From assembly GCA_963793425.1 (NCBI GenBank), contig CAWCAG010000001.1, positions 352,001 through 416,000 of the forward strand: a DNA stretch of 64,000 nucleotides. The letters run 5' to 3'. Origin of the DNA: an uncultured cyanobacterium. GTDB taxonomy: Bacteria; Cyanobacteriota; Cyanobacteriia; Cyanobacteriales; CAWCAG01. Of this stretch, positions 7,414-38,370 are shown piece after piece. The notes under the pieces are model-generated. The model did not search any database and was not told the DNA's origin. It was given only the letters and a program-made list of their open reading frames with translations. A program made the position numbers and the translations under genes. The stretch's first letter is position 1, and each line of letters begins with the position of its first letter.

Positions 7414-7535
7414 TTACTCACCAACCCTTATCCCTATTTCTGAAAAATCCATAACTTTGGCTTGTCTTTTCCCACAGCAACAACCCCAATCTCTTGCATA
7501 CTGACCTCTTTCTACAAATCTTGTAAAACTTTTTG
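7414..7535 (-). mobile_element. C-terminal remnant of a REP-associated tyrosine transposase (RAYT)
   Basis: SFTRFVERGQYARDWGC ... GE* resembles RAYT C-termini; a GTAG REP follows directly. Confidence 0.5.
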
Positions 7536-8090
7536 TACCTGGTGATTGATTGGTTAATGTTAAGGCGAAACGTCCTTTGGCATCGGCTGTAACTGTGGCG
7601 ATGCTTTTGTTTAAGGGGCCGCGATTGTTTTCTGTTTCTAAAACCTGATAAATGTCAATTTGTGAACCAGGATCGGCTGTACCATCAAGATTTACTTTGC
7701 CCTCTAGAAGCAAAAATTCTTGACTTAACCATTGGGGAGTGTTAATCGCCCGGTTTCCTGTATCTAAACTACGGTTGCGAGAATCTCTTTGAGGGTTTGG
7801 CCCATCTCCCCTTTGATAATTTTGGCGGTTGGAACTATTCCGGGTAGTTAAGTTGATGCTGAGGCCTTCTAAAGCAGCAAAGTAATTATTTTGAATGAGG
7901 TTGCGGTTACTTTGGGGATAGGCAGCAACAACAACCCCAGGCCCAAGTTGACTGACAATACTATTATTAGTAACTTTGTGGTCATTGCCCATGAGGTAAA
8001 TAGCAGCACGTCTAAGGCGACGACCATTATATTTAATTTTGTTATCGCGAATGGTTACAGATATTGGTTTTTAATTAATATTCTTTTCAT
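7536..8090 (-). pseudogene. Internal fragment of a parallel beta-helix/Ig-like surface protein of the DUF11 cluster
   Basis: IRDNKIKYNGRRLRRAAIYLMGNDHKVTNNSI ... GTADPGSQIDIY; no signal peptide; fused to an unrelated tail. Confidence 0.6.
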
Positions 8091-8151: not shown

Positions 8152-11100
8152 CTACCTCCCCACAGATTCTCCTTGCTGTTGTGGTGCAATGCTAGTTTGC
8201 CCAAAGCCGCCGAATAAATCATTAAGTTTGACAGTGAAAGTCACATAAGGGCCTCCGGCTGAACGGGAACCTGTGAAATCGCGATCGCTGACTTCCCCTA
8301 ATGAGTAACCCCCAGCGAGACGGAGGTTGGGGGTGAGGTAGTAACCGAGTTCTGCGGAAAAGGCGGTTTCTGTGTAACCAGCAGAGGGTTGAGTAATCCA
8401 TCTTGCTTCTCCTACGAGATCGAAGTTGTAGCCAAGGCGATAGGTTGCTCTGAGTTGTGCTAAGGAGACGGTGCTAGCGGCTACAAAGTCATTGGCTAAG
8501 TAGGTGGTGCTGGTGCGGAAGGCATACTTGCCGTAGAACTCCCAGCGCCAACTGGGGGCGTAAATAGCTTCGGCAGAGAAGAGATGTTCCTCCGAACCAG
8601 TGCCGCCACCAAAGAGGATGGTGTCAGGGATGGTGGCGGGGTTGCGACGATATTCGTATTTTAATAAAGCATTCCAAGTATCGTTATGGGGATCGCGGTA
8701 AGCTAAACCCAATTTTAGGTCGGTTGATGCTCCTAAATCAGCGAGGGTTGTGTTGGCAGAGTGAGCTTGACGAAAGTTGAATAAGGCGGAAATGCTAGGG
8801 CTGATTTTGCCTAATGCCGAAGCAGAAATAACGGTGTTGCTGCCTTGGGAGGAGGTGCGATGTTCAAATAAGGCGCTGGCTTTGAAACGAGGATCGTCGG
8901 TATATTCTAAACCAACACTGTAGCTATCTCCGTCGGTTACTCCTAATAAAGAACCATTTTCCCCTGTGGCAATGGTTTGATTGATGCCTTCTCCTACTAC
9001 ATTGGAGTTGAAGCTACCGAAAACCCTTTCATAAGTGAGGTTGAGTTTTAACCCAGGGGTGATGTCCCAACGATGTTGTAAACCGATGCCTCCTTGAGCG
9101 GTATAATTGTTGGCACTGCCCAGGACTGTATAACGACCAGTTAGGCGGGTGTTGTCGGTGAGATTATAATCTCCTTTAACCCCTAAGCTAGTGATAGATT
9201 GTCCGGCAAACTCTCCACTAGTGTAAAAGTTTTGCCCTAAAGTAACATTCACCCCCGGCACAACTCCCCAATCTAATTCAAAAGCGGTGCGATCGCCGCG
9301 AGAAGCGTTACTATTTCCTAAAATGGTAAGTTCATTGAGAGCTTTGAAGGTAAGATTATTAGTGAGGGGAACGGTGAGGCGCGATCGCAGTTGATGGGAT
9401 TCACCATTAAAATCAGGGTTGATTCTGTCTTCCCGGTTGCGATAAATCCAATCTAAATCAACGGTCGATGTACCCAGCTTTTGTTGAATACCTAAAGAGG
9501 CGGTGGTGAGGGAGTTATCAACAATGCTGTTAGACTCAAAACTATTGAATCCTCCTTCTAAATTAAAACCTTCCAAGACATCGCCAATGGGAGTAAGGGT
9601 TTGTCTGCGGATGCCTTGATTTTCTGTGTGGTCGTATTTGGCCCGCACCCTGGTACTTTCAGAAAGACGGGCTTCAACTTCTGCCCCGTAGCGAGTTTGC
9701 CCAGGAACAAAACTTACTGTCGCATTGTTAGCAAAGCCGCTATCGGTGGAACTATAATAGGCACGTCCTCGGAAACTTTCTCCTAGCTTACTTTCCAGTT
9801 GGAAGCGATAAGCTGAACCAGAAACAGAACCCAACTCCGGGGAAGTATTGTTGGAATGGGCATATTCACCAATAAAGCGAGAACCTTCTCCCAAGGAAAC
9901 TAGGAGATCCGTTCCATAGAGTTCAAAGTCGCGATCGCCTTGATCTTCTTTGAAATAAGTAGCCCCCAACCAGCTTTCGCTATTTAATCCTCTAGCAAAG
10001 TTGTAACGCAATCTGCCGCCATAAATATTGGTGTTGCTAGCATCTCCTTCATATTGATAGGTGGCAACAATCCGCCGGACTAAAACGTTTCCCTCTTCAT
10101 CAATATCAGTACGGAGTATGGGTTCGCGGAAGTTTACCGTCCCTCTATCATAATCAATTTCATAATCAGCCCCTAAAATTAAGCGTTCCCGTTGCAGAAC
10201 AATTCCGGGACGTTCTAATTCTTCCAATTCTAAATAAATATCTTCACTACCAGGGACAACTAGGCGTTGGGAAAGGAAGTAAATACCGCTTGTACCGTCA
10301 GGATTAAGGGTATCTCGTTGAAAACCTTCGACATTGTTGGCATAGAAGCCGCTAATTTGCAGATTGCCTAAATTAAAGTTGCCACTGAAGCCGTGGAATT
10401 GACGATTCAGGGCAGTGAAAAGTTGGGAATTAGTGGCAAACTCCTCTGTGTTATAGTCTCCCCACATAAAGTAGTCGGGGCTAGCATTGGGAATACCGGG
10501 GGAACGTTCTAAGCGTAGGTACAAACTATCTGTAGAGGGAGTTAGCACTTCGGAAGTGGAACTATCGCCATAAATTGAGTATTGATTTTCTGAGGTTTGG
10601 TACTCCCGAAAGATACGGTTGCGGCAATCGCAATCAAGATTTAAAGGACGTTGATTGTTATATGCCCCAGTGTATAACCATTCCCCAATTGTTCCTGTAG
10701 CAAAAACAGCCGTACTAAAATCCAATTCTGTGGAGTTGTCACCATCAGCAGGTAAAAAGTCTTTAAAGCTACCATGAAAATCTGTACCGCGAGATCCCCA
10801 CCGCAGGTTAATCACCCCAGAGATTAAACTAGGACGCAAGGATGTTTCTAATTGCAGTTGGGTATAAGCTTCTAATTCATTAGTTTGTGCTTTAATAGTA
10901 ACGGTTTGCGCCTTGGTGACGGAACGTAAATTAGTGGTAAAACGTCCTTCTAATACCTCCAACTGAAAGCCAGGTTGATCTGGTTTATAATCTGCTTCAA
11001 TAAACTCTCCGGCAGTGGAAGTTAAGGTAACAATACCATTCCAATTGGAGAGGTTGCCATTTTCATCTAATAATTGTCCCTGAACCGTAGCAGTGGAACG

Positions 11101-11745
11101 ACCGTTAGCTTGAATAGCAGTTTCTCTAGTATCAACAATAAGTTGGGTGGGTTGCCCCTTAACTTGTACTTCCACAGAAGCGGTTTCCGAGTTGGCAATG
11201 CTAGCAGTGATAGTGTTGTTGCCAGCCGTAAGGGGAACACCATACCAAGTTTGAGTAATAAGATTATTAATATTATCTGTTTCTGTACGTCCAATTAAGG
11301 AAGAATCTACAGCATTGCCATTGACTTTAAGTTCTACTTCTGTTCCTACTCTGTAGCGAAGAATGACTGTGGCAGCAGGGTTATCAAGGATACTGCCAAC
11401 GGTAGGAGAAATTATGGTTAGGGGAGATTGTTCAGTATTGAGAACAGTTTCTACATTTTCTGTTGTCTCTTCTGCCAAAGGAATAGTTGTTTCGTTTCCC
11501 TGCATCTCTTCTGTAGAAGAAACAGCTTCTACATTTCCTGTTGTCTCTTCTGTAAAAGGAATAGTTGTTTCATTTCCGGTTATCTCTTCTGTAACAACAA
11601 AAGTTCCTGTTCCCTGTTTCCCGTTTCCTGTTTCCTCTTGAACAAAAACATCCTGAGAAGCTTGGGCGATCGCAGGAAAGAAAACCAAATTCGCACCACC
11701 TGCGAGCGCGCCAATTATTTTTACTTTTTGTTTTCTTAATTTCAT
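8152..11745 (-). CDS. Large exported protein: Ig-like N-terminal domains plus a probable outer-membrane beta-barrel
   Basis: Signal peptide; long C-terminal run of amphipathic aromatic strands (LRATYRLGYNFDLVGE, ELGYYLTPNLRLAGGY). Confidence 0.75.
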   Translation of the reverse strand: MKLRKQKVKIIGALAGGANLVFFPAIAQASQDVFVQEETGNGKQGTGTFVVTEEITGNETTIPFTEETTGNVEAVSSTEEMQGNETTIPLAEETTENVETVLNTEQSPLTIISPTVGSILDNPAATVILRYRVGTEVELKVNGNAVDSSLIGRTETDNINNLITQTWYGVPLTAGNNTITASIANSETASVEVQVKGQPTQLIVDTRETAIQANGRSTATVQGQLLDENGNLSNWNGIVTLTSTAGEFIEADYKPDQPGFQLEVLEGRFTTNLRSVTKAQTVTIKAQTNELEAYTQLQLETSLRPSLISGVINLRWGSRGTDFHGSFKDFLPADGDNSTELDFSTAVFATGTIGEWLYTGAYNNQRPLNLDCDCRNRIFREYQTSENQYSIYGDSSTSEVLTPSTDSLYLRLERSPGIPNASPDYFMWGDYNTEEFATNSQLFTALNRQFHGFSGNFNLGNLQISGFYANNVEGFQRDTLNPDGTSGIYFLSQRLVVPGSEDIYLELEELERPGIVLQRERLILGADYEIDYDRGTVNFREPILRTDIDEEGNVLVRRIVATYQYEGDASNTNIYGGRLRYNFARGLNSESWLGATYFKEDQGDRDFELYGTDLLVSLGEGSRFIGEYAHSNNTSPELGSVSGSAYRFQLESKLGESFRGRAYYSSTDSGFANNATVSFVPGQTRYGAEVEARLSESTRVRAKYDHTENQGIRRQTLTPIGDVLEGFNLEGGFNSFESNSIVDNSLTTASLGIQQKLGTSTVDLDWIYRNREDRINPDFNGESHQLRSRLTVPLTNNLTFKALNELTILGNSNASRGDRTAFELDWGVVPGVNVTLGQNFYTSGEFAGQSITSLGVKGDYNLTDNTRLTGRYTVLGSANNYTAQGGIGLQHRWDITPGLKLNLTYERVFGSFNSNVVGEGINQTIATGENGSLLGVTDGDSYSVGLEYTDDPRFKASALFEHRTSSQGSNTVISASALGKISPSISALFNFRQAHSANTTLADLGASTDLKLGLAYRDPHNDTWNALLKYEYRRNPATIPDTILFGGGTGSEEHLFSAEAIYAPSWRWEFYGKYAFRTSTTYLANDFVAASTVSLAQLRATYRLGYNFDLVGEARWITQPSAGYTETAFSAELGYYLTPNLRLAGGYSLGEVSDRDFTGSRSAGGPYVTFTVKLNDLFGGFGQTSIAPQQQGESVGR

Positions 11746-11871
11746 AATCTAAAGTCCATTGGGAGACGGGGAGGGGGAAACGGGAAAGTAATAAGTAATA
11801 AGTAATAAGTTGGGAATTTACTATTTTTTACTCTCTTGCACGATTAGCAACTAGCAACTAGCAACTAGCCA

Positions 11872-13371
11872 TTAGTTAATTTCTTCTTGAAAAGTAGGTG
11901 TCACTGCAAAGTTCATCCTTGCCATGCCGCCGGGGGCGAGACGTACTAGCCTTGATTGGCTGTTGCGTTCGCTGAATTTGATATTTGGGGCGATGGTATA
12001 ACCAGGAAGACTAGTAAAATCTAGAGTTCCGGCATGATAACCAGCGTGTACCGAAGCAACGGAAAACAAACCATCGGCATCTGTTGTAATGCGGTTGCCG
12101 TCTTCCAACATAATTACCGCATTGGGAACTCCTGGTTCATTGTTTTGCTGTTCCCCATCAAAGTTTTTATCTACAAAAACTCGACCAATCAAAGTACCAC
12201 AGTCAGCGAGGATGCCGGGGTCAACCCGTAAGCGATGGTTGGTTGGGCCATCCTTAACCCGGAAGTCATTGTCACTACGTTGGGCATTAACAACCGCAGA
12301 ATTAATCCCGGAACCTCTCAAAGAATCGGGAGTTAACTGGGCGGCGTAAACAATATTTAGTACTTCTCCTGGAGGAATTGCTGCGCCTAGTTGCATTGTC
12401 ACCGAACTACTTTCTCCGGTGGTAGTAACCTCAACAGGTTGTCCCTGCAACTCTCCCTGCACAGAGTTCGGCAAAAACTTAAACCCAAGGGGCAAACGGT
12501 CATTAATAATTGCTCTATTTAAAGGTACATCTGACTTATTCCTGATACTAATGCGGTAAAGTATCGTATCTCCGGGTTCAGCCGTAGCGCGATCGCCAGT
12601 TTTAACAATATCAATTTGGTCAGCTTGGCACATTACTGTGTCAAACTGCAAAGCAAACAAAGTTAGTCCTTGTGCTTCTGCATTGAATACTTCCACCATT
12701 TGATCAGTAATTTGCGTTCCCCCTGATACAGAGATGGGTTGCCCATCCAAGGATGTAGCCCGGTAACGGACAATACTATTGTTACTACTGCCAACACTGC
12801 TAAGGATTTCAATTTTGATTCTGCGCTGGGTATAAATAGAATCAGTAGGAGGATTAATAACCAAAATATAAGTTTGACCAGGGTTTGTCTGCCCTTTAGC
12901 CGGATCAAAGAGGAAGTTGTATTGCCCTTGATTAATATTGTCAAGGGGAAAAGGATTGATATTTGTACTGTTAGGATTCCTTCCCCCAGGTACACCATTA
13001 TTTGGAGTGTCAGGAAACTCTGTCTGGCTTAAATTCACCAACCTACCTAATTCCGAACCTGTAGTATCTCCAGGGTTTGGTTCATAAAGTGCAACGGTAA
13101 AGCCACCATAATTATCAAGCACATTGCCGCCACAACCGAGAATGCGACCAAGAGGATCAACTAAAGACTCTGGCTTAGTACCTAAAGTTGTAGAAAAGCC
13201 TTGAAACTTAGTATCTGTGCTAGGGTCTTGGTATTCCACTTGGGCTTGGTTATTAATAGCTGCACGAATAGTCTCAGCAGAGGTTTGGGCCAACACAGAC
13301 ATTTGAGTTGAGATAACAGTCCCGATTGCTAATGCGGCAGTGATAGGTTTTGAGAAAGTAGAGATGTTCAC
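11872..13371 (-). CDS. DUF11 + SdrD-B-like exported protein
   Basis: Signal peptide; IDIVKTGDRATAEPGDTILYRISIRN ... INDRLPLGF; GRVFVDKNFDGEQQNNEPG. Confidence 0.85.
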   Translation of the reverse strand: MNISTFSKPITAALAIGTVISTQMSVLAQTSAETIRAAINNQAQVEYQDPSTDTKFQGFSTTLGTKPESLVDPLGRILGCGGNVLDNYGGFTVALYEPNPGDTTGSELGRLVNLSQTEFPDTPNNGVPGGRNPNSTNINPFPLDNINQGQYNFLFDPAKGQTNPGQTYILVINPPTDSIYTQRRIKIEILSSVGSSNNSIVRYRATSLDGQPISVSGGTQITDQMVEVFNAEAQGLTLFALQFDTVMCQADQIDIVKTGDRATAEPGDTILYRISIRNKSDVPLNRAIINDRLPLGFKFLPNSVQGELQGQPVEVTTTGESSSVTMQLGAAIPPGEVLNIVYAAQLTPDSLRGSGINSAVVNAQRSDNDFRVKDGPTNHRLRVDPGILADCGTLIGRVFVDKNFDGEQQNNEPGVPNAVIMLEDGNRITTDADGLFSVASVHAGYHAGTLDFTSLPGYTIAPNIKFSERNSQSRLVRLAPGGMARMNFAVTPTFQEEIN

Positions 13372-13453
13372 AGTTGGCGTTGGGGAGATGGGGGGCTGGA
13401 GAGATGGGGGGCTGGGGAGCTAGAACATTTGGCGACTAGCCACTAGCCACTAA

Positions 13454-13759
13454 CTAATGATCAGCCTTAACATCCCCGGAGTTTTCCCCACTAACCACAT
13501 AACGTAAAGTGTCTCCTGGTGCAACCTTAACCTTTCCCTCTAAAGCTTTCCAGCTAACTTGCTTGTCAGCATCCACAACTTTTTGTTCAGCTTCTAAAGT
13601 GAGTTTAACTTCCGGACGACGAATTGCTTCAACAAGCGCTTCTCCCATTTCCTGGAGTTGTGCCAACACTGGCTGCCCACTAATTAAGGGAACTGCACTA
13701 ACTAAAGCAAGCATTCCGAATCCAACTAACAAACGTTTTTTACTTAATAAAGCTTTCAC
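13454..13759 (-). pseudogene. Truncated paralog of the small DUF11-like protein at 20392-20949
   Basis: Aligns with the first half of 20392-20949 (RPEVKL ... PGDTLRYVVSGEN), then stops at a heptamer repeat tract. Confidence 0.7.
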
Positions 13760-13820
13760 GTATATAACTCCTAATGCAAACTTTCAAATGAACTATTAGC
13801 AACTAGCAACTAGCAATTAA

Positions 13821-16331
13821 CTAATTCACCCGACGACGGAAAATCAAGAACCCTTCTTTTTGTGGTTCCAAAAGTCCTGTCACCTTGTCTATGTATTTAG
13901 TGACATCGTTATTAACTGTGACACCGGATTGATCAATAGTTGAGGTGCTTGCTGGGCTGCCACTGAAATAGCTGATGTTGCCGCCGCGGGAGTCACTGGC
14001 TGAACCAACAATATTGCTAGTGTCGATTTCGCTATTATTGTCGTTGTCTAATGCCCAATTATTCGGAGCAGTTACACCATCTTCTGTAATCACAATGTTG
14101 TCGGCTTTCAGTGATACATTGCCACTACCTGCGGGAGGTTCAGAAATGTTTTTGTAGATAACTTTGTATTCAATAATGTTGCCCGAAGAAGGAGTTCTCA
14201 GTACATCCGCAACAGTACTATTAGGATCATTCCCATTAGCATCAGTAGGAGTGGAATTAAAATCACCTTGCCCAGCCTTAACTAGTTCCCCATCTCCTTG
14301 TAAGATACGGGAGAGTTTGGTTAACTTCAAATAACCAGTGTAAACCCGATCAATGGTTGTATTTTTATTCAGGACAGCACCTCCATTACTAATGGTTGCA
14401 GTTAAGGGTACGGGATAACCAGGCTCATTATCACCAGAGGCTGCATCCGTTGAAAGGGAGGTATTGTTAGGTAAGTCGATTTCTACACCGTAGTTAAATT
14501 GCTGGTTAGGAGCAACATTAGGAACAACAATGGGAGTACCTGTTGTCGTGAATGTATTATTAACTTGATCGTAAGTATAAGTTGCTGTAGCGCCAAGAGG
14601 ACTAATAATTGTTACTTTAGTACCGTTAGGTAAGTCGTTGGGGTTAGCTAGAGGTGAGGGTTCTATGGTTATATTTCCTTTGGTTTGCCCATTGTTAATA
14701 ATAGTATTCGTGAAGTTGACCGGCCCCGGATCATAGGTGCTTCCCGGAGTCGCTTTAGCAGAAGGTAAAATCGCTGATTTGTTGGTAAAATCATCATTGT
14801 TACTGTTAGGGCCGGTTGCACCAGGGGCATTGTCAGGGCCATTAAGCAAGTCGTAGACTTTGGCAATCCCCAAAGGTAGTATATTAGCTTCACCAGCAGT
14901 TCCTGTACCAGTGTTGTTGTTACCGGGGTCAGTACCTACAGTCCCTAACTCATCAGGTTGCCCGTCGCCGTTACCATCAGGTAAATAACCATCGGTAGCA
15001 GGGTCAAAAGCACCAGCAGTTTCATTGTAGTTGCTAGGAGTTTGGTCACCAGATTCATCAACTACAGGGACAGTTCCCGCCGAATCAGATGCACCAAAGA
15101 CTTGAGCAATATTAGCAATAGTAGCTGAATTGCCAGGAACATTGCTGGTAAGAACTTGGACACGGAAGGTTTGTACCGTTGTACCGGGACCAACAGAAGC
15201 TACAGAGTTGTTGTTGATGAAACCAACTCGTTTAACTGCACTAAAATTTCCCCCTGGCACTGTTGTTACCCACCGTGCCTTGGTTGCATCGTCGTAGGGA
15301 GTTGTTGCCGGATCATCAAGGGTATAAACAGCTGTCCAACCAGTAGGTGCAGTGGTAAGACCAGTTAGGACAGTACCCGCAGGAATCGCATCGGAAACGA
15401 GGATATGCTTCTCAGGCGTGCCATCAATATTGATATTACTCAAAGGTAGCAACGGAGCAGGAATAAAACCCCCAGTTGTCGGGTCGTTTTGTTCTACCCT
15501 AAACTTCAAATCATAGGTGATTCTGTCATCGGTGATAATAGAAGAGTCTCCTGGCAGATATTCTGACCTAGTTTTCTCGATAGTTACCAAAGGCTGGTTT
15601 TTAGCTGCATCTCCTACCTTAATTCCCTGAGTATCGCTAGCTTCCCGCACCCCGTTAGCAGGAGCGCCAGGTGTTTCACCAATCGTACCGTCAGCAGCAT
15701 CAACAGTGTAGACATCACCACCATTGGTAATAAAGTCTTGGTTTTGACTATTACCAGGAGTGTTACCTAACTGAACGTTGATGGTATCTCCTGATTGAGG
15801 ACTAGAATCAACGGTAATTGGTACTCGAACCAGAATAGAACCTCTTGGTGCTAGAGGAGTAGTATCTAAAGACCCGGCCGTAATCGCCTGCCAACCATTG
15901 CCATCATTGTAATTAACTTCTAAGCTACCACTAATAATACCTGGCCCTGTGAGGTTTGCAGTGTTAGGAATGCGGAACTTGGTTGTATCGTTACCAACGT
16001 TTGTAACTGTATATGTGTAGTAAAGTTCGTCATTTTTTGCGATGGGAGTGGTAGAGCCATCTTGCTTAGCAATACCTGATGCCTTCACAGTAATACCAGC
16101 AATCTCTGCAACTTCCACAGTCACTTTGTTGGACTTAGAAGTTAACTTCGCAGAAGGATCATTGGGGTCATTATAGGTTGCTGTTGCTGTGTTATCAATT
16201 TTCGTGCCAGCCGCCGTGTCTGGATCTGCAAGGGCTGGGAGAATGAGTTGCAAGTTACCACTGAGAATTAGTAGAGTACTTATAATGGGCAAGTAAGACT
16301 TGCGCGATTTAGTAGTGATGTTTTTAGCCAT
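13821..16331 (-). CDS. Exported multi-DUF11/Ig-fold protein (putative fibre subunit A)
   Basis: Signal peptide; TAAGTKIDNTATATY; YTVTNVGN; SDAIPAGT; GNIIEY; C-terminus FRRRVN. Confidence 0.85.
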   Translation of the reverse strand: MAKNITTKSRKSYLPIISTLLILSGNLQLILPALADPDTAAGTKIDNTATATYNDPNDPSAKLTSKSNKVTVEVAEIAGITVKASGIAKQDGSTTPIAKNDELYYTYTVTNVGNDTTKFRIPNTANLTGPGIISGSLEVNYNDGNGWQAITAGSLDTTPLAPRGSILVRVPITVDSSPQSGDTINVQLGNTPGNSQNQDFITNGGDVYTVDAADGTIGETPGAPANGVREASDTQGIKVGDAAKNQPLVTIEKTRSEYLPGDSSIITDDRITYDLKFRVEQNDPTTGGFIPAPLLPLSNINIDGTPEKHILVSDAIPAGTVLTGLTTAPTGWTAVYTLDDPATTPYDDATKARWVTTVPGGNFSAVKRVGFINNNSVASVGPGTTVQTFRVQVLTSNVPGNSATIANIAQVFGASDSAGTVPVVDESGDQTPSNYNETAGAFDPATDGYLPDGNGDGQPDELGTVGTDPGNNNTGTGTAGEANILPLGIAKVYDLLNGPDNAPGATGPNSNNDDFTNKSAILPSAKATPGSTYDPGPVNFTNTIINNGQTKGNITIEPSPLANPNDLPNGTKVTIISPLGATATYTYDQVNNTFTTTGTPIVVPNVAPNQQFNYGVEIDLPNNTSLSTDAASGDNEPGYPVPLTATISNGGAVLNKNTTIDRVYTGYLKLTKLSRILQGDGELVKAGQGDFNSTPTDANGNDPNSTVADVLRTPSSGNIIEYKVIYKNISEPPAGSGNVSLKADNIVITEDGVTAPNNWALDNDNNSEIDTSNIVGSASDSRGGNISYFSGSPASTSTIDQSGVTVNNDVTKYIDKVTGLLEPQKEGFLIFRRRVN

Positions 16332-16892
16332 ATTTGCCTTTCATTAAGAAAGATAAAATAGAAGTTTGTCGGTTTGATATTTTTCTTTGCTGAACTTATA
16401 TTCATTATTTGTTCTCAGTGTTTATGATGATGTGTGTTTAAACGTATACTTTGAATTTAGTTGGATACCTCACCCTTTTGCTCTGTAGTTTTGTAAGGTA
16501 AATGCCTTCACAGGAAAGTCATACCTGCAATCCTCAGAAAAAATCATTTCAGGAAAGAAAAATTTTGAGGCAACAAAAAATAGACTTTAAACAAACACAA
16601 AACAAACATTTTGGCTAACTTAGGGTTCATAAATAAGTACTTTTTGGTACGCTCACCTGCCTAAAGGAGTATTGAGGCTTGCATTTTTGGGGATCTTTAT
16701 CTCCCCATAGTTGAAAGTTTCTGAGATTATTCTTTCTTAAGGCTCAGGGTTTGTTGATATTTATTATGTTATCTTGTCAAGCTAGACCCCAATAATTTTT
16801 TTGATTTTAATAACAATTTCCCTTAACAAGAAACACAATTTAGTATTTTTGGGTCTTTCAATAATACGAGAATAATTTAGGTCAATATCCCC

Positions 16893-19800
16893 ATGAAACT
16901 ATACAGGCGGCATCTTTATTGGTTGTTGTTCCTGCTTTCCTTCACTGGAAATCTTTATAGCCAAAAAGCTGTCCAAGCTCAAGTAATAATACCTGCTAAT
17001 GACGGTACTGGTACGATTGTTACCCCAGAAGGGAATCGCCTTGATATTTCTGGCGGTACTCTAACTCCAGATGGAGCAAATCTTTTTCATAGTTGGCAAC
17101 AATTTGGCTTAAATGCAGGGCAAGTTGCTAACTTTATTTCTAACCCAGAAATTAGCAATATTCTAGGGCGAGTTGTGGGGGGAAATCCTTCGGTAATTGA
17201 TGGTTTGATTCAAATTAGTGGCGGCAACTCCAACTTATTTTTACTTAACCCCGCAGGAATTGTTTTTCTTAATAATGCTCAATTAAATGTTCCTGGAGAT
17301 TTTACAGCTACCACTGCTACAGGAATTGGTTTCGGTAATAATAATTGGTTTGATGCTTTTGGTGGCAATAACTACCAAAACTTGGTTGGTGATCCGACTC
17401 AATTTGCCTTTGATTTATCCCAACCAGGGGTAATAGTTAATGCAGGTAATTTAGCTGTAGCAACAGGAGAAAACTTAAGCTTATTAAGTGGCAGTATTTA
17501 TAACACCGGAAACCTCAGCGCCCCAGCCGGGAAAGTAACCTTAATGAGTGTCCCCGGAAGCAGTGTGGTGAGAATTAGCCAACCAGGAAACTTGTTAAGC
17601 TTAGAAGTCAAACCTCCTGGTAATACAGGATTTCGTGCTTTAGATTTACCTGCTTTGTTAACTGGATCTCTGCAAAATATTGATACGGGTTTAGAAATTA
17701 ATCAAGGAAAAGTACAACTGGTTTATTCTGGAGAAACCATTCCTACCCAACCAGGTACAACCATAGTTTCTGGCAACATAGATGTTTCCTCCCCTACTAA
17801 TCAAGGGGGCAATGTAGATATTTTGGGTTCCCGCGTCGGTATAGTGGGAGCAAATATTGATGCAGTGGGTAATCAGGGCGGCACAGTGAGGATTGGGGGA
17901 GATTACCAAGGCAAGGGCGGCATACCCAATGCTGATTTTATTTATATTGGTAGCAACTCCCTAATCAACGCCTCTGGAAGCAAAGGAGATGGGGGTAGGG
18001 TAATTGTTTGGGCAGATAAGACAACTAATTTCCAAGGTGACATTGTTGCTAAGGGAGGAATGAATGGAGGTGATGGGGGTTTTGTGGAAGTTTCTGGTAA
18101 GCAAAACCTTTGGTTTCGGGGGAAAGTAGATTTAAGCGCCCCCCAAGGAAAATTGGGAACCCTCTTATTAGATCCTGAAGATATCCTCATCATTAATAGT
18201 GGTGGTAATAATAGTGCTTTAGCCGATAATCAAATTCTTTTTAGCGATCGCCCCAATGAAACCTTCACTATTTCTGCTGCCACCCTTGAGAGTTTAAACG
18301 GTAACATTTTATTAGAAGCTACCGAAAATATTATCCTCGACTCCGCCCTCTCTTTAAAATTCGTTCCTGGGGGAGATATAACCTTTACAGCAGACTCTGA
18401 TGGCAATGGTAGTGGTGCTTTCACCATGGGTAGTAACCAATCCCTAACTACATCAGGAAGGGATCTAACTATCTCTGCTGCAACCATAGAAGCCGGGAAT
18501 ATTAATACATTGTCCGATTCTGGTAGTGGTGGTGCGGTGCTATTAAGCGCTAACCAAGGGAGATTAAAAGTAGGAGATATTAACACCGCCTCAACTGCCC
18601 CCTTAACTGCCAGTACCAAAGATGGCGGAGAAGTTAACTTAGAAGCAACTGCGGGGCAAATACAAGCCGGGAATATTGATACTTCTTCTACTTTTGGTAG
18701 AGGGGGGGCAGTGCAACTATCTACATCCAACATTGCTACCCTCAAAACCGTCAACACTCAGGGTAGGGAAGCCGGGGGCAACTTCACTAGTAATAGTCTC
18801 TTGCTACGGGTAACAGACACTTTTCTTAACAACAACAACATCACAGCTAGTATTTCCACTACTGCTTCTTCAGGTACAGGAGGATTGATCGATATCAATC
18901 ACCGTAGCGGCGAATATAACATTCCCTTCATTGTCGGCAAAGCGAATTTCAATGGTACTACCGGAGCGGTTACTAGCGGCGACTTTACCATTTTGCCCGA
19001 TCCCCAAAACTTCCCCTCTTCCTTTAACTCAGGTTCTGTTAACCTAACCACTCCTGAACCTGTGACTGCTTGCCCCCCAGAATGCGAAGAAAGCGAAGAA
19101 GAACAAAAAGTCGAATCCCTTGAACAAGTACCTGCTGTAACCATGGTAGGGCAAATAGAAAGCACTTATACCGAAGAGTTTACTGATTTTCTTGGTACTA
19201 CCGCCCCCCAACCAGTCAGCGTCGAAGAAACCATAGATACCTTGCGCGAAAGCCAAGAACTTACAGGCAAAAAATCAGTCGTTATCTATGCAGAGTTTGT
19301 TGATGATAACTTAGAAATTGCCTTAGTAAGTCCTAACAGACAACCCGTTAGGTACAAAATAGAAGGGGCAGAAAAAGAAAAAGTCATAGAAACCGTCCTC
19401 CAATTCAATCGCGCCCTTGCCAATGTACGCCGCCCTCAAGTTTATCTTCCTGCTTCCCAACAACTTTATGAGTGGATTATCGCCCCAGTTGCTCAAGAAT
19501 TAGCAGCGGAGGATGTGGATCACCTCAGTTTTGTTATGGATGCTGGCTTGCGTTCCTTGCCTCTAGCGGCTTTGCATAGCGGCAAAGGCTTCTTGATTGA
19601 GGAATACAGCGTTGGCTTATTACCAAGTATTTCTTTAACTAACTTTAACTATTTAGATAGCCAAGAACAACAAGTCCTCGCCATGGGGGCAGAACATTTC
19701 ACTCGGCAAATTTCTTTACCTGCCGTCCCTTTGGAGTTACAATCAATTGTTGGTAGCTTATGGTCTGGTAAGTCCTTTATCAATGAAGCTTTCACCTTAG

Positions 19801-20330
19801 AAAACCTCCAACAAGCTCGTGCTTCCCAATCCTTTGGTATCATTCACTTAGCTACTCATAGTAAGTTTCGCCCCGGCAAACCGAGTAACTCTTACATTCA
19901 GCTTTGGGATACTAAGCTAGGATTAGACGACTTACCTAAGCTAAGTTTAAACAGTCCCCCAGTAGATTTATTAGTACTTTCTGCTTGTGAAACTGCTGTA
20001 GGAAGTACCGAAGCAGAGTTAGGCTTTGCGGGCTTGACAGTGCAAGCTGGGGTTAACTCTGCCCTTGGTAGTCTTTGGGCTGTTAGCGATGAAGCAACTT
20101 TAGGACTCATGGGAGGTTTTTACGAACAACTAAGAGAATCTCCTAAAGCAGAAGCACTACGCCAAGCACAGTTAGGAATGCTGCAAGGGAAAGTTAAGTT
20201 GGAAGATGGCTATGTGGTTACAGGTTCGAGGAAGTTACCTTTACCTGCAAAGTTAAGAAAGTTAGGCAATCAAGACTTTTCTCATCCCTACTATTGGAGT
20301 GCTTTTACCATGATTGGTGATCCATGGTGA
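16893..20330 (+). CDS. Filamentous haemagglutinin TPS domain + beta-helix + CHAT protease domain protein
   Basis: NLFHSWQQF and NPAGIVF (TPS); [23 protein letters not shown] and HPYYWSAF (CHAT). Confidence 0.92.
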
Positions 20331-20391
20331 TGTTCATTGAACATTGAACATTTTTCCTAGGAGGATAATTCTTGATTGCCAGCTATTTATC

Positions 20392-20949
20392 CTACTTAAT
20401 TGAAACTTGGTAGGAAGCTTGTACCTGCTCCTGTGCTACTATAGCCTGTTCAAAGCTCCAACGAATGTGAGTATAGGACTCGGCAGGAGCTGGTTGCTCG
20501 ATGATTGTACCATTGTTATCTACTTGGATAGTTGGTTCTGTACTGAAAGTTGCACCGTTATCGATACTGTAGGTGATAGTAGCAACATTGCTACTATCTG
20601 CTGAATCTAAAACAAAGATAGTTTGTGTAGGAATAGGCTGGGTAATTACAAAGTCGTTTGCTGTAGCATCACCAGTATTTTCACCACTAACCGTGTAACG
20701 AAGAACATCCCCTGGTACAACCGTAGCTTCTCCTGCCAGTTCTTGCCAGTCAATTTGTTCATTTCCAGAACCATCAACTGTGATCATACGCTTAGCTGCA
20801 TCCAAGTCTAACTTAACTTCAGGGCGATTCAGAAGTTGGGCGATTTTGGTTCCTGCCTCGCGGATACTAGCCCGCACTGGTGAACTAGCTAAAACTGGAA
20901 CTGTAATAACAAGAGCGATTGCACTGAGACTAAGAACGAGACGTTTCAT
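20392..20949 (-). CDS. Small exported single-domain DUF11-like protein
   Basis: Signal peptide; PGDVLRYTVSGENTG; ITYSIDNG; YTHIRW. Confidence 0.85.
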   Translation of the reverse strand: MKRLVLSLSAIALVITVPVLASSPVRASIREAGTKIAQLLNRPEVKLDLDAAKRMITVDGSGNEQIDWQELAGEATVVPGDVLRYTVSGENTGDATANDFVITQPIPTQTIFVLDSADSSNVATITYSIDNGATFSTEPTIQVDNNGTIIEQPAPAESYTHIRWSFEQAIVAQEQVQASYQVSIK

Positions 20950-21041
20950 GATAAACCTCTATTATCTACAAATTAGTACTTTGAAAGAAAGTCGGCGAGA
21001 AAAATTTTTACTCGCCAATTGTGTCTGCTGTAACCAAGATT

Positions 21042-23504
21042 TTAATTAACCTTGCGTTGGAAGCTAAACTCACCCGATACACCAGGAGCAACATTGCTGA
21101 TTGTGTCTATATATTTAGTAATATCTACACCCACTGCATCTAAGACGCTACCACCACCAAGGTCAAAGTACGCAACAACACCGCCGTTATCATCGCTAGC
21201 TTGCCCAACAACATGGCTGGTATCAGTTTCGCCATTACTGTCGTTGTCTAAGGCCCAGTTGTTATCGATAGCTACATCAGCACCATCTTCAGTAATTATT
21301 ACTGTGCTGGCATTTAAGCCGATGTTTCCTACACCACCACCAGGGGTAGAGATATTGCTGTAGGTGACAGTATATTCAATGATATTACCCGGTGCAGGGG
21401 GGTTATCAGGATCGCTAACTATTGGGCCATCTCCTTGTAGAACTTGGAAAGTTTTTTCTAGTTTTAAATAACCAGTGTAAAGCCGATCAATCGTGGTGTT
21501 CTCTGCTTCAAAAGTTCCGTCACCATCGGTATCTAGTTTAGCAACAACTTGTACAGGGAAACCAAACTCTGTATCTCCAGTGTAATCCTCAATTGTGTCG
21601 GTAGAAAGAGGTGTGTTGGTAGGTAAATCAATTTCTACATTGTAGGCAACAGGAACATTTGGAAGTACTCCTTTTCCTGGACCACCGACAAGAGGCAGCG
21701 AGTTGTCAAAGACAATCGCTACGCCATTAGTGAGAGTAAAGGTTCCTGTGGCTTGAACATACTGGTAAGTGGCAGATTTAATTGGATTAGTAGGGTCAAG
21801 AATATCTGCTGCGGTTATAGTAACCACAGTTTGATCTGGCAGATCAAGGGGGTTAACTGGGGCAACAGGTTCTAGGGTAACATCAGCAGACTGGCCACTC
21901 TGATTGACAAAAGTGTTCACAAACGTTACGGGATCGGGGTCAATGGTAGAACCTGGTTTGGTGTATTTGATAATTGGTGTAGATTTGTTGGTAAAGTCGT
22001 CGTTACTGTCCGTTGGTCCAATGGCATCCACAACATCTTTGGGACCATTTAAAATATCTCCCACTGCAGGTAAGGCAATCTCGATAAAGTTTGCTTCACC
22101 ACCAGGACCATCACCAGTGTTGTCGTTGTTGGTATCAATACCAATACTAGCAGTTAAAGCTGCTAAATCCGTAGCATCAAGTAAGCCGGTATCAGTGATG
22201 GGGTCAAAAACATCTACAGTACCATTAGCAGGGTTGTAGTTATTCGGATTTTGGTCACCAGATTCATCATAAACAAGAATGTCAGGAACTCCGTCTGTAG
22301 CACCAAAAGCTTGGACGATGTTGGCTACATTTAAAGGTGAAGTTGCAGTGGCAATAACTCCTAACTGGAGAGAAAAACCGTTAACAGTTTGCCCTGGAGT
22401 AACAGTAGCTACTGTACTGTTGATGAAACCAACACGAGTTACAGGACCAGTCAAATCTCCTATATCTGTTCTCCAGTTGGCATCTACAGCAGCAGTAGCG
22501 ATGAAACTATCTGTGTAAACAGTTATCCAGCCGCTAGGGGCAACCGGCGTGCCTTGTAATTCTGTTCCTGCGGGAATAGCATCCGAGATGAGGATATGAG
22601 CCTTAACGACACCATCAACATTAATATCTATACCAGCCAGAGGTGCAGGGTTAAGCCCTATACCTGTTGGATCACTAGATTCAACCTGCAAACTAAGATC
22701 ATAGGTAAGAACATCGTCGATAATATTGAGAGGATCGCCCTTATCGTGGTTAGTTTGGGTTTTAAGGACTTTTGCTAGGGCTGTTGGTGAGGCTTCTACT
22801 GTTGCTTCTTGAAGAACACTGGTTTCGCTTTCACCATTAGCTGGGGCCGGAGTACTATCATCAATTGTTTGTAAGTCGCTACCATCACCAGCATCAACTA
22901 ATGACTGACTTGTACCATCGTTATTGGCTGCATTACCCAGTCGAACACCAATGGTTTCTCCGGAATTAGCGTTGCTGTCAACACTTACTGTCACCCTGAC
23001 TTTAATTGAGCCATCGGCAGCAATGGCAGTAGTCGTAGTTAGACCGTTCGCAGGAACTGACGTTTCAAACGTACCATCTCCATCTAAATCTACATCTACA
23101 GAGGTAATAGTACCAGGGCCTGTGATATTGATACTGTCCTGGTCGGGGATAAATAATTGCGTTGGATCATTACCAACGTTAGTAATGGTGTAGTCGTAAA
23201 AGATTTGATCATTCCGAGCAATTTTGCCACCATTATCATCAATTACACCAGCATTCGTTGCTGTAATACCAGAAACTTCTGCTACGGTGACGGTAATAGT
23301 ATCAGAAGTTGCATTGATGATATTAAGAGGATCGGTTAAATCAATATAAGTTGCAGTTGCAGTGTTTTTAATCTCTTGGCCAGCTTGAGTGTCAGCTAGA
23401 ACAGGAGAAATCAACCGAAAGTTACCGCTAACTATCAAAGCAGTAGTAAGGAAAATCCAATATAATCTGCTTGTCTTTCTGAAGGTTTGACGTGCCATAT
23501 TCAT
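21042..23504 (-). CDS. Exported multi-DUF11/Ig-fold protein (putative fibre subunit B), paralog of 13821-16331
   Basis: Shared motifs NTATATY, TNVGND, SDAIPAGT, DESGDQ, NDDFTNKS, NTTIDRxYTGYLKL, NNWALDND; C-terminus FQRKVN. Confidence 0.85.
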   Translation of the reverse strand: MNMARQTFRKTSRLYWIFLTTALIVSGNFRLISPVLADTQAGQEIKNTATATYIDLTDPLNIINATSDTITVTVAEVSGITATNAGVIDDNGGKIARNDQIFYDYTITNVGNDPTQLFIPDQDSINITGPGTITSVDVDLDGDGTFETSVPANGLTTTTAIAADGSIKVRVTVSVDSNANSGETIGVRLGNAANNDGTSQSLVDAGDGSDLQTIDDSTPAPANGESETSVLQEATVEASPTALAKVLKTQTNHDKGDPLNIIDDVLTYDLSLQVESSDPTGIGLNPAPLAGIDINVDGVVKAHILISDAIPAGTELQGTPVAPSGWITVYTDSFIATAAVDANWRTDIGDLTGPVTRVGFINSTVATVTPGQTVNGFSLQLGVIATATSPLNVANIVQAFGATDGVPDILVYDESGDQNPNNYNPANGTVDVFDPITDTGLLDATDLAALTASIGIDTNNDNTGDGPGGEANFIEIALPAVGDILNGPKDVVDAIGPTDSNDDFTNKSTPIIKYTKPGSTIDPDPVTFVNTFVNQSGQSADVTLEPVAPVNPLDLPDQTVVTITAADILDPTNPIKSATYQYVQATGTFTLTNGVAIVFDNSLPLVGGPGKGVLPNVPVAYNVEIDLPTNTPLSTDTIEDYTGDTEFGFPVQVVAKLDTDGDGTFEAENTTIDRLYTGYLKLEKTFQVLQGDGPIVSDPDNPPAPGNIIEYTVTYSNISTPGGGVGNIGLNASTVIITEDGADVAIDNNWALDNDSNGETDTSHVVGQASDDNGGVVAYFDLGGGSVLDAVGVDITKYIDTISNVAPGVSGEFSFQRKVN

Positions 23505-23953: not shown

Positions 23954-25051
23954 TTACCCATGGGTGATAGGTAAAGAAAAGCGGAAGGTACTGCCTTCAC
24001 CTAACTCACTTTCTACCTCAATTTTGCCCCCTTGCAACTCTACTAAATGACGAGCGATCGCTAAACCAATTCCTGTACCTCCTGAATGGCGCGATCGCGA
24101 ACGATCTGCTCTCCAGAAGCGTTCAAAAACATGACTTAGGTTTTCTGGGGCAATTCCTGGCCCTGTATCAATTACAGCTATCCAAACATAACTATTGTCT
24201 GCCCAAGCACGAACGGTAATAGAGCCTTTTTCGGTGTAAAGTAAGGCATTACCAAGTAAGTTAACTAAAACCTGTTCTGTGCGGTCAATATCTGCTACAA
24301 TTGGCGGTAAATTTTCAGGACAATCTAACTGTAAAGTAGGGCCTTCTTCCCAGAGTTGATCGGCAAATCTTGCTACTAATGATTTCAACAAAGGTAACAG
24401 AGGCAAAGGTTTGAGGTCGATTGGTAAATAGCCTGCTTCCGCTTTAGATAGTTCCTGCAAGTCATTAACTAACCTCTCTAAGCGTTTTGTTTCTCGTACC
24501 AAACGCAGATATACTTCCGGGGATGATTCAATGCTGCCATCAGCTAATTCTTCTAAATAACCCCGTACCACCGTGAGAGGAGTACGCAATTCGTGGGTCA
24601 TATCCCCAATTAACTCCCGCCTCTGCTGTTCTACTCCTTCTAAACTATCAGCCATACGATTGAAGCTTTTACCCAATTGATTTAACTCCGGAATTTCTGT
24701 ATCTGGCATTCTTTCTTGTAAGTTACCTGCGGCTAGTTTCTGGGTTACTTCTTCCATTTGTTTTAGGGGTTGCATGATACGCCGAGAAATTAAGTAACTG
24801 AGTCCCCCTGCTGCCGTTGCACCCACAATAGCCGGCCAAATGATACTGCGATTCCAAGCAGCTTGAAAACCCCGAATTAAGAAGGTGCGGGAAGAACGAA
24901 CAGTAACAAAGCCTCTTCTTTCTAACTGTTCGAGTTGCAAGACAAATGTTTTGGGAGAAGCGAATTTAGAAACTAAGGTAAGACTACCAAAGCCGACTAC
25001 TATTACTAGTAGGTGCGAGAAGAATAAGCGTTTACCTAAGCCTAATGCCAT
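23954..25051 (-). CDS. Membrane HAMP sensor histidine kinase (BaeS-like)
   Basis: THELRTPL, NLLGNA, DTGPGI, GGTGIGL; 2 TM helices plus HAMP. Confidence 0.92.
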   Translation of the reverse strand: MALGLGKRLFFSHLLVIVVGFGSLTLVSKFASPKTFVLQLEQLERRGFVTVRSSRTFLIRGFQAAWNRSIIWPAIVGATAAGGLSYLISRRIMQPLKQMEEVTQKLAAGNLQERMPDTEIPELNQLGKSFNRMADSLEGVEQQRRELIGDMTHELRTPLTVVRGYLEELADGSIESSPEVYLRLVRETKRLERLVNDLQELSKAEAGYLPIDLKPLPLLPLLKSLVARFADQLWEEGPTLQLDCPENLPPIVADIDRTEQVLVNLLGNALLYTEKGSITVRAWADNSYVWIAVIDTGPGIAPENLSHVFERFWRADRSRSRHSGGTGIGLAIARHLVELQGGKIEVESELGEGSTFRFSLPITHG

Positions 25052-25165
25052 TTTTCATTTAACATTTAACATTGATCATTTATCAGTAGTTTGAGAAAGG
25101 AAGGTAAGGCAATTAGCAATTAGCCACTAGCCACTAGCCACTAGCCGTTAGCCGTTAGCAAAGTT

Positions 25166-26557
25166 TTAAAATTCTGCACTTAAAGGAGTACGAGGAAAAG
25201 GAATAACATCGCGGATATTATTCATCCCGGTCATAAACTGTACTAACCTTTCAAAGCCTAAGCCAAAACCAGCATGGGGAACTGTTCCGTAACGACGCAG
25301 ATCGAGATACCACCATAAATCTTCTGTGGGAAATTCTTGTTCTTTAATGCGTCTTTCTAAAACATCAAGACGTTCCTCCCGTTGTGAACCGCCGATAATT
25401 TCACCAATTTTGGGGGCTAAAACATCCATGGCAGCAACGGTTTTTTCATCGTCATTTAAACGCATATAAAAAGCCTTAATTCCCACAGGATAATCAGTGA
25501 CAATGGTAGGTTTTTTAAATAATTCTTCTGCTAAATAACGCTCATGTTCTGATTGTAAATCTATGCCCCACTCTACAGGATATTCAAACTTCCTTTCTGC
25601 TTTTTCTAAAAGTGAAATCGCCTCTGTATAAGTAATCTTAGCAAACTCACTATTAATAATATTATCTGCGGTGGCTAAAACAGTATCATCAATGCGTTTG
25701 TTGAAAAATTCCATATCTTCAGGACATTTTTCTAACACAAACTTAAACACATATTTAAGGAACTGTTCCGCTAAATCTCTGTCCCCTGCTAAATCACAAA
25801 AAGCCATTTCTGGTTCCACCATCCAAAACTCAGCTAAATGGCGGGAAGTATTGGAATTTTCTGCCCGAAAAGTGGGACCAAAAGTATAAACATCTTTAAA
25901 AGCCATCGCCATCACTTCCGCTTCTAATTGCCCACTGACGGTCAGATAAGCCTGCCGACCAAAAAAGTCTTGGCTAAAGTCTATTTCCCCATTATCGAGG
26001 CGGGGGACATCTTTTAAATTCAAACTCGTGACATTAAATAACTCCCCTGCCCCCTCACAATCACTCGCGGTTATAACCGGGGTATGAACCCAGAGAAAGT
26101 CCCTCGCTTGGAAAAATTGATGGATCGCCTCAGAACAAGCATTACGTACCCGAAAAACCGCTCCTAAAGTATTGGTACGCGCTCTTAAATGGCCAATAGT
26201 ACGCAAAAATTCAAAGGAATGACGCTTTTTTTGTAAAGGATAGGTTTCTACCTCCGCTTCTCCATAAACTTCTACCTTAGAAGCCTGTATTTCTACCCGC
26301 TGCCCTTTACCCGGAGAAGCAGCTAAAACCCCGGCAACTTCCACCGAAGCCCCTGTATTAAGCTGTTTAAGCAAGTCCTCATAATCTGGTAAATCAGGAT
26401 TAAGTACCACTTGAATACTTGCTAAGGAAGAACCATCATTAACTTCTATAAAAGCAAAATTTTTCAATTCCCGCTTAGTACGCACCCAACCCTGAATTGT
26501 GACCACATTATCAGGTTGCCCTTGGCGCAAGATTTCTCTAATCCTTTTTGTAACCAT
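25166..26557 (-). CDS. asnS: Asparagine-tRNA ligase
   Basis: [33 protein letters not shown]. Confidence 0.98.
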
Positions 26558-26777
26558 AGATTTTTCTTTTTATCGAACTCGCAGCTATATAGCAATATAG
26601 CAATGTTTGAGGGAGCAGGGAGTGGGGAGTGGGGAGTAAAGTTAGGGCTGGGTTGCCATTATGCTACTAATTCAACTTTGGAGTTAAACTCTTCTGCCAC
26701 GACTCTACAATAAAGGTTATTGTTGAAGCAGTCTGTATCCCTCCTACTCCCTACTCCCTACTCCCTGTACTTAATCA

Positions 26778-38361: not shown

Positions 38362-38370
38362 TACTTTTAT

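Follow-up and report, generated by a model that had tools for sequence, protein, structure and literature searches.

A cyanobacterial gene cluster for a putative donor-strand surface fibre with a split CnaA-like isopeptide domain and a giant outer-membrane barrel

We analysed a stretch of 64,000 nucleotides (nt) of contig CAWCAG010000001.1 from an uncultured cyanobacterium (GenBank assembly GCA_963793425.1, positions 352,001 to 416,000), which is referred to below as the window. It contains a cluster of genes, all on the minus strand, that code for two large paralogous proteins termed here the major subunits (P0003, of 836 amino acids (aa), and P0004, of 820 aa), a small protein of 185 aa (P0126), a 499-aa protein that we call the anchor (P0002) and a 1197-aa predicted outer-membrane protein (P0001); signal-peptide-like starts are found in all five. 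We consider it reasonably probable that this cluster encodes a putative surface fibre in which a split CnaA-like isopeptide domain is completed by donor strands. The most economical explanation of the features described below, and one in which we have moderate confidence, would be covalent polymerisation of the major subunits in trans onto a root subunit that is bound to the barrel formed by P0001. The positions of the features are collected in Table 1.

The evidence that carries this view comes from the last domain of the major subunits, D4, and from their N-termini. In both P0003 and P0004, D4 has the Lys and the acidic residue and then stops after the fifth-strand motif, before the Asn strand of complete domains, and the N-terminus, right after the signal peptide, is a two-strand hairpin with an invariant Asn. 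When D4 (P0003 residues 650-836) was used as a query among longer proteins two matches were obtained, namely P0400, a 2704-aa nuclease-family protein of Synechocystis sp. LKSZ1 in which the D4-like domain is 50% identical to D4, and P0401, a 2910-aa protein of Runella defluvii that carries a type IX secretion system (T9SS) tail and in which the identity is 45%. It can be seen that in both the D4-like ending continues in cis, after nine residues, into the hairpin (FQRKVNQAASGQAISNTVTATYEDPN and FQRKVNEPSETLTLSNNANATYEDQN). P0003 ends with FLIFRRRVN followed by the stop codon, and its mature N-terminus starts with DPDTAAGTKIDNTATATYNDPN. Because of these cis-complete versions we regard D4 and the hairpin as one domain, and it is well supported by the sequence comparison that the domain of the major subunit was cut in the loop before the Asn strand, its last two strands having moved to the N-terminus. 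The original prediction had been that the large paralogs combine an incomplete C-terminal domain with an orphan N-terminal strand motif; this was borne out, both halves being seen joined in P0400 and P0401.

A special chemical role for the C-terminal Asn, which is the last residue in 119 of 121 homologues of the major subunit, was also considered and was dropped; this Asn is kept in the cis-complete domains as well, and is therefore taken to be a structural residue of the domain. We did note that the D3-D4-hairpin module is an internal stalk piece in the two longer proteins, an ExeM/NucH-type nuclease in Synechocystis and a T9SS-sorted protein in Runella (Bacteroidota), and its occurrence at 45-50% identity suggests exchange of the module between phyla.

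The complete internal domains were assigned with Pfam. P0003 and P0004 match DUF7925 (PF25546) at 195.3 and 203.5 bits respectively against a cut-off of 26.5, and among the cluster proteins only P0002 passes the threshold for DUF11 (PF01345; 33.6 against 24.6 bits), with an SdrD_B-like domain beside it. The 185-aa protein lies just under the DUF11 threshold at 24.4 bits and passes that of TIGR01451 (34.3 against 24 bits), and P0001 has only a weak match to an invasin-D3-like immunoglobulin-like (Ig-like) domain. The Lys, Asp and Asn residues and the terminal motifs that had been picked out beforehand in the P0001-P0004 cluster were all found in their places, and the assignment of the internal domains to DUF11 holds for P0002 but not for P0003 and P0004, which are DUF7925 proteins. 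DUF7925 is described as a CnaA-like predicted isopeptide family, new in the survey concerned and seeded on a protein of Nostoc PCC 7120, and the triad given for Q8YS00 is Lys264/Asp326/Asn415 (PMC12617251). The same survey names DUF11 "CLIPPER" and refers to the Lys-Asp-Asn bond solved in 9IFR. As it covers both DUF11 and DUF7925, the part of our finding that concerns internal domains is already known. Sequence searches of the PDB returned nothing for P0001 or for the queries A1 and A2, and gave a weak match of the P0002 family to 9IFR (E 0.0028).

Conservation of the residues in question was assessed next to that of the internal triad. Among the 121 homologues of the major subunit, N47 of the hairpin and K672 of D4 are present in all, E721 in 120 and D751 in 119, and the internal residues K253, D314 and N407 are each present in all 121. 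The hairpin is the best-conserved segment of the major subunit, with a mean top-residue frequency of 0.91; in 55% of its columns the frequency reaches at least 0.95. Five residues of the P0002 family (N41, Y47, K257, D291 and N357) are invariant in all 25 members, so that the N-terminal strand previously proposed for the 499-aa protein is present with its Asn41 and Tyr47 unchanged throughout. Across the 5400 open reading frames (ORFs) of the genome the donor pattern stands near the N-terminus of five, which are four in the two loci of this genome (the present cluster and a second locus described below) and one small ORF; the acceptor ending was found in six, of which four were expected, one is P0002 (a chance match) and one is a small ORF. 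In shuffled ORFs there was one match to the donor pattern and none to the acceptor ending. We conclude that, as judged from these pattern counts, the terminal motifs are beyond chance.

An AlphaFold2 monomer model of P0003 (mean predicted local distance difference test score (pLDDT) 76.7, predicted template modelling score (pTM) 0.54) has as its last predicted element a strand at residues 826-835, and places the hairpin strands at 44-47, 50-55, 58-66 and 70-73. Foldseek searches with this model retrieved only generic multi-Ig adhesins, integrin legs, pilin fusions and AgI/II C-domains, with template modelling (TM) scores of at most 0.25.

A second class of evidence is the existence of proteins that carry only one half of the split domain. 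Donor-only proteins are the P0002 family and the 317-aa anchor of a second, display-type system in this genome (locus L068, G000:C5:1235501-1249500), which has a donor-like strand at its start and no incomplete domain. L068 also encodes a 1226-aa barrel paralogue (48% identical), a 570-aa NosD-like beta-helix protein and two acceptor-only adhesins of 826 and 804 aa, which have a DUF6923 head, DUF11 domains and D4-like ends (...RVEIN and ...RVKVN, respectively). There is no dual subunit at L068, and its donor and acceptor halves can therefore only meet between chains. In 34 of the 67 loci related to the present cluster a fifth gene directly after the barrel gene encodes a protein of 800-1160 aa with SdrD_B repeats and the acceptor ending ...RFRxKVK. 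Six more cyanobacterial loci that have the barrel without DUF7925 were examined, and four of these comprise a short donor anchor, the barrel and one or two acceptor-ending proteins. At a distant metagenome locus, L070, four classes stand in a row: an acceptor-only protein of 584 aa, a 167-aa protein that is 35% identical to the 185-aa protein (E 1e-18), a dual protein of 603 aa and a donor-bearing giant barrel of 2041 aa. Since donor-only and acceptor-only proteins cannot complement themselves, we infer that pairing takes place in trans. The first reading of the window had overlooked the 185-aa acceptor-only protein, the acceptor-only adhesins, the second locus and the partial rearrangement of the cluster that is considered below.

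A potential explanation that would not need to invoke a fibre is that the hairpin of each major subunit fills the D4 of the same chain, which becomes a locked covalent monomer, only adhesin-anchor pairs being formed in trans. On this view P0003 and P0004 would not be fibre subunits but stabilised surface proteins that are possibly released. This would be compatible with the cis-complete homologues, which show the kinship of the hairpin and D4 and not which chain gives the hairpin. The D2-D3 linker of about 55 residues (436-495, pLDDT ~50) is flexible and could permit fold-back, which is a point against assembly in trans, and a 'closed', self-directed donor strand is seen in models of TafA (PMC11821415). 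We nevertheless regard self-closure of the major subunits as unlikely, because a closed monomer would have no free end for the anchor and barrel that are always encoded alongside, because the donor-only and acceptor-only partners encoded in the same loci or in sister ones require pairing in trans, and because the hairpin continues into D1 without a linker, as in tandem domains.

The gene for the 185-aa protein is present in all 67 loci, always after the gene for the major subunit. When the protein was compared with the DUF11 domain of P0002 (93% probability), Gln104 aligned on the catalytic Asp291; Lys53 is kept, and the chain ends after the same strand as D4, the Asn strand being absent. The counterpart at L070 has Asn at the position of the acid. 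A protein without the catalytic acid fits a reversible cap, and from these features we propose the 185-aa protein as a candidate non-covalent cap or chaperone for donor hairpins. Most likely it would hold the hairpins reversibly in the periplasm and guard them against dead-end self-closure, although it could instead be a non-covalent tip.

The same residues bear on the possibility that a donor-strand fibre is formed in trans without any covalent lock, the Lys, Asp and Asn serving for packing only. It is consistent with this that isopeptide bonds are predicted in only 109 of 154 DUF7925 domains (PMC12617251 supplement), and that BsaA oligomers are stable to sodium dodecyl sulphate even when the bond is missing (PMC11580942). 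However, Lys672, Asp751 and Asn47 are as strictly conserved in the homologues as the internal triad, and the acid is lost specifically in the presumed reversible binder (Gln in the 185-aa protein here, Asn at L070) while the Lys is kept. We therefore judge an unlocked fibre to be quite unlikely.

Turning to the anchor and the barrel, the gene order major subunit, 185-aa protein, anchor, barrel is common to the 67 loci, which is the outcome of the gene-neighbourhood survey that had been called for. The anchor is present in 66 and the barrel in 62, the remainder being cut by contig ends, and in 56 of 64 loci there is an overlap of 4 nt between the anchor stop and the barrel ORF, counted from its first start. 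A search profile covering the barrel part only retrieved 2773 representative clusters at E ≤ 0.001, of which 935 remain at E ≤ 1e-30. We examined 23 barrel relatives selected for length and found DUF11 ahead of the barrel in 20, of which 16 also have SdrD_B and five have OmpA, SPOR or SLH domains. The domain order of these fused relatives matches that of P0002 followed by P0001, anchor and barrel being one chain in other phyla. A donor motif follows the signal peptide in 17 of the 20 DUF11-barrel giants (seven by a strict pattern; 16 by a loose pattern, plus one by the strict pattern only), against 0.4 per 20 in shuffles. Because of the gene overlap and the fusion of the DUF11 and donor part to the barrel, we take P0002 to be the root subunit of the barrel; this agrees with the earlier proposal that the 499-aa protein is a base or adaptor, as it is donor-only and tied to the barrel both by the overlap and, in other lineages, by fusion. 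In those relatives that have a peptidoglycan-binding domain, its position between the root and the barrel suggests that the chain may enter the lumen of the barrel from the outside and reach the periplasm.

A model of P0001 residues 300-1197 (mean pLDDT 69.1, pTM 0.58) is almost all beta, with 47 predicted strands, 37 of which have at least nine residues, and three short helices; it supports the view that P0001 is a very large, beta-rich predicted outer-membrane protein. Foldseek put the largest barrels known at the top, in the order SlpA of Deinococcus, LptD, the T9SS translocon SprA and then FimD, all with TM scores of at most 0.28; BtuB and similar receptors were generic barrel matches only. 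With VIA, FimD came first (Z 15.2, root mean square deviation 11.1 Å, 354 aligned) and porins tied at Z ~14. P0001 has no usher match in Pfam, and as FimD ties with ordinary porins the term 'usher-like' can be used as a functional analogy only. Of the suggestion that the 1197-aa protein is an usher-like pore, the very large beta-rich predicted outer-membrane barrel is supported, a specific kinship with ushers is not, and a role as an assembly pore is a possible one. Neither the usher family (PF00577), the PapD-type chaperone family (PF00345) nor the sortase family (PF04203) was found in this genome, which is 98.6% complete; the Escherichia coli control was positive for ushers, and the Escherichia coli and Deinococcus radiodurans controls were positive for the chaperone.

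Members of the barrel family bear the public names 'TonB-dependent receptor' or 'Ig-like domain-containing protein', and in the ESM Atlas the homologues P0129 and P0011 have only their own families and automatic names. The first of the public names is unsupported for P0001, in which Plug and TonB_dep_Rec domains were not found and which has no plug or TonB-receptor match in Pfam or NCBIfam. These annotations, and a model that matches many barrels equally, would fit a situation in which there is no complementation at all, the subunits being ordinary multi-Ig adhesins or S-layer-like proteins with quirk motifs and the barrel a porin or receptor that shares their operon. We consider this very unlikely. 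P0001 lacks a Pfam match to a plug or TonB receptor, coupling or fusion of the barrel gene to the gene for a DUF11 protein with a donor is seen across phyla, the split domain has cis-complete versions, and both the donor and the acceptor classes turn up again at distant loci.

The mechanism that we propose for the trans-assembled, covalently locked fibre would run as follows. The major subunits P0003 and P0004 would be exported by Sec with D4 lacking its final two strands; the next subunit would bring the missing strands, with the bond-forming Asn, at its mature N-terminus, and these strands would insert into D4. Insertion would set Asn47 beside Lys672 and Asp751, and an autocatalytic Lys-Asn isopeptide bond would lock the joint. 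At the chain end the donor-only P0002, which would have its root in the giant barrel P0001 or be threaded through it, would fill the last D4, and the far end could be capped by acceptor-only proteins such as the large adhesins encoded after the barrel gene elsewhere and at the second locus here. The 185-aa acceptor would hold the donor hairpins reversibly, so that self-closure does not take place before assembly.

A number of observations weigh against this scheme. The homologues are phylogenetically clustered, being mostly Nostoc relatives, and as they are not independent the counts given above overstate independence. D4 has no Pfam DUF11 match, and when D4 was aligned by hhalign to complete DUF11 and DUF7925 domains the scores were equally weak whether the hairpin was attached or left off, as did the controls (D4 with the reversed hairpin and D4 with three control segments). 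Pfam searches at E 10 with D4, D3, the N-terminal 215 aa and the 45-aa hairpin returned no relevant match. Three of the 23 long barrel relatives, all close cyanobacterial relatives, are without DUF11, and three of the 20 giants are without a readable N-terminus. Among the six display-type loci one is cut by a contig end, one has an atypical ending and one has a fused anchor-barrel with no adjoining adhesin. Lastly, the cluster in the window is a rearranged copy: the 185-aa gene beside P0003 is truncated, a gap of 126 nt takes the place of the usual anchor-barrel overlap, the fifth (adhesin) gene is absent, the beta-helix gene is a remnant and a gene for a TPS-CHAT protein stands between the subunit genes. 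The rearranged locus may still be functional, with adhesins supplied from the second locus.

Several known systems come close to the proposed fibre. As in chaperone-usher pili (FimH-FimG/F/A-FimI with FimC and FimD; PapH), incomplete Ig-like subunits would be completed by the N-terminal donor of the next subunit, there are an acceptor-only tip adhesin, a donor-only terminator or anchor and an outer-membrane barrel in the operon, and the subunits would have their N-terminus distal and their C-terminus proximal. Unlike in those pili, the usher and PapD families are missing from this genome as described above, a CnaA-like domain supplies the donor, a two-strand hairpin that carries the isopeptide Asn, the subunits, of about 840 aa, would be four-domain rods, the barrel region has about 880 residues and is fused to the root in other phyla, and the candidate chaperone is of the acceptor type and not of the donor type. 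The multi-domain pilins, internal isopeptides and covalent head-to-tail joining (here predicted) recall the sortase-assembled pili of Gram-positive bacteria; however, in this diderm organism the sortase family was not found in the genome, the LPXTG motif is absent (the subunits end ...RRVN and ...RKVN), and joining would be autocatalytic via the completed fold and not enzymatic. In SpyTag/SpyCatcher an engineered split of a CnaB isopeptide domain allows a single strand supplied by another chain to lock covalently. That pair is man-made and of the CnaB type, whereas the split seen here is seemingly natural, CnaA-like, arranged head-to-tail and part of an assembly system.

A precedent for the mechanism is BsaA of Clostridium perfringens, a TasA-family protein for which 'donor-strand exchange and lock' has been described and in which mutation of the triad abolished oligomers (PMC11580942). 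In BsaA, too, an N-terminal donor enters the neighbour and an Asn/acid/Lys triad that is split between chains gives an intermolecular isopeptide bond, as is predicted here. It differs in being a Gram-positive matrix protein of the TasA fold that donates a single strand and has no barrel, anchor subunit or adhesin classes; the triad is N-E-K across chains in BsaA/TasA and K-D-N in the CnaA-like domain here, there is no sequence relation and no TasA-family Pfam match in the present system, and the likeness is one of mechanism only. In the archaeal thread Saci_0406 the N-terminal amine of Asp24 is bonded to Asn57 of subunit n+2 (PMC9715654). The thread shares donor-strand complementation, proposed covalent isopeptides between subunits and the absence of chaperone-usher genes, but its subunit is a small single-head protein of a monoderm archaeon and not a CnaA-like split domain. 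With the CLIPPER and DUF7925 domains of the survey (PMC12617251), the internal domains of P0002, P0003 and P0004 are fellow members that have the triad, and D4 has the same motif order; the bonds in the survey lie within one chain, in stalks of fibrillar adhesins, whereas here one copy of the domain is split between the termini. In kind, the system is a variant of the donor-strand fibre in which the internal isopeptide domains are known and the division of a domain between subunit termini is the new part. Literature searches, which included the available part of a 2026 Chem Rev review, found no published description of such a split-domain fibre and barrel system. We regard a donor-strand "exchange-and-lock" fibre of diderm bacteria, apparently unpublished, as probable.

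To assess distribution we used a sample of 201 genomes of the phylum. DUF7925 is present in 20 and the barrel family in 31, including all of the 20. The barrel orthologue in Anabaena PCC 7120 is All3289 (1289 aa), and the sole mention of it that we found, in the literature as available, is as an atypical OmpA-like outer-membrane protein (PMC9705863); all3292, which may be the DUF7925 gene, is mentioned only among predicted FurC sites (PMC10406281). If our proposal is correct, the system would be widespread, as the barrel family comprises 2773 representative clusters from cyanobacteria and other bacteria. We see an even chance that there is a widespread class of diderm fibre or adhesin-display systems that combines a covalent click via a naturally split isopeptide domain, a root with a giant barrel of about 36-38 long strands that is possibly a conduit for folded subunits, and a decoy acceptor acting as a chaperone that guards donor strands and not grooves. 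Such a system would be a further route to surface fibres and adhesin display in diderms, beside the chaperone-usher, type IV, type V, curli and autotransporter routes. It would also be the counterpart in nature of SpyTag/SpyCatcher chemistry, from which orthogonal pairs for covalent "click" joining of proteins could be drawn. DUF7925 proteins, many DUF11 proteins and outer-membrane proteins mislabelled as TonB-dependent receptors, such as All3289, would gain a function, and in cyanobacteria it would be a candidate for a role in adhesion, aggregation, mat formation or symbiosis contacts.

Table 1. Features of the gene cluster in the window (positions are those of the window; strand in brackets)
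Feature	Position	Strand	Description
192-aa C-terminal remnant of a beta-helix protein (545-570 aa)	7414..7992	(-)	Full-length gene follows the barrel gene in some loci (8/67); probably truncated here
P0001, 1197 aa, predicted outer-membrane protein	8152..11745	(-)	Signal peptide, acidic repeats, Ig-like (invasin D3-like) region, ~880-residue predicted beta-barrel region
P0002, 499 aa, donor-only root/anchor subunit	11872..13371	(-)	N-terminal strand 13231-13257 (Asn41), conserved N domain, complete DUF11 (K257/D291/N357), SdrD_B-like C-terminal domain
101-aa truncated paralogue of the 185-aa gene	13454..13759	(-)	First half only; at the position of the 185-aa gene in other genomes
P0003, 836 aa, major subunit, donor and acceptor	13821..16331	(-)	Signal peptide, N-terminal hairpin, D1, D2 (DUF7925), Gly/Asp/Asn-rich linker, D3, incomplete D4
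P0003 acceptor domain D4, residues 655-836	13824..14369	(-)	Lys672, Glu721, Asp751; ends ...RRVN
P0003 complete internal DUF7925, residues 248-435	15027..15590	(-)	Triad K253/D314/N407
P0003 donor hairpin, residues 42-74	16110..16208	(-)	Asn47; directly after the predicted signal-peptidase site (between ALA and DPD)
TPS+CHAT protein, 1145 aa	16893..20330	(+)	Between the two subunit genes
P0126, 185 aa, DUF11-like acceptor-only protein	20392..20949	(-)	Lys53 kept, Gln104 at the catalytic Asp position, without Asn strand
P0004, 820 aa, paralogous major subunit	21042..23504	(-)	43% identical to P0003; hairpin 23283-23381, acceptor domain 21045-21509

The product of the plus-strand gene between the subunit genes has a TPS domain for secretion of the filamentous-haemagglutinin type and, at the C-terminus, a CHAT protease domain. 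Since this gene has about 10 paralogues in the genome and occurs in none of the 67 related loci, we place it outside the system. A scan of the locus for promoters and terminators gave sites that were no more frequent than in shuffles. The beta-helix proteins of loci L001, L068 and L071, which are relatives of the remnant listed in Table 1, are secreted and right-handed, with Beta_helix/NosD matches and a Big_6-like end.

Other genes in the window were noted in passing. At 23954-30503 a HAMP histidine kinase (365 aa) adjoins the cluster, and in the same region a gene for an asparaginyl-type class II tRNA synthetase is followed by one for a hybrid kinase of 1241 aa whose sensor domain is Tll0287-like. 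The other loci showed no link of these genes to the fibre genes. A block of three genes at 35605-41723 (minus strand) has a low G+C content (35-39%) and a mobile or defence-type look; one encodes a 918-aa protein that combines a 3'-5' exonuclease, a PD-(D/E)XK nuclease and an FtsK/SpoIIIE ATPase, and the others encode a 689-aa AAA_16 ATPase and a 417-aa protein without a family. A 1393-aa ORF at 50732-54913 (plus strand) has no Pfam match at E 1e-5 and falls where the G+C content of the window is lowest (31.6% at 52-54 kb).

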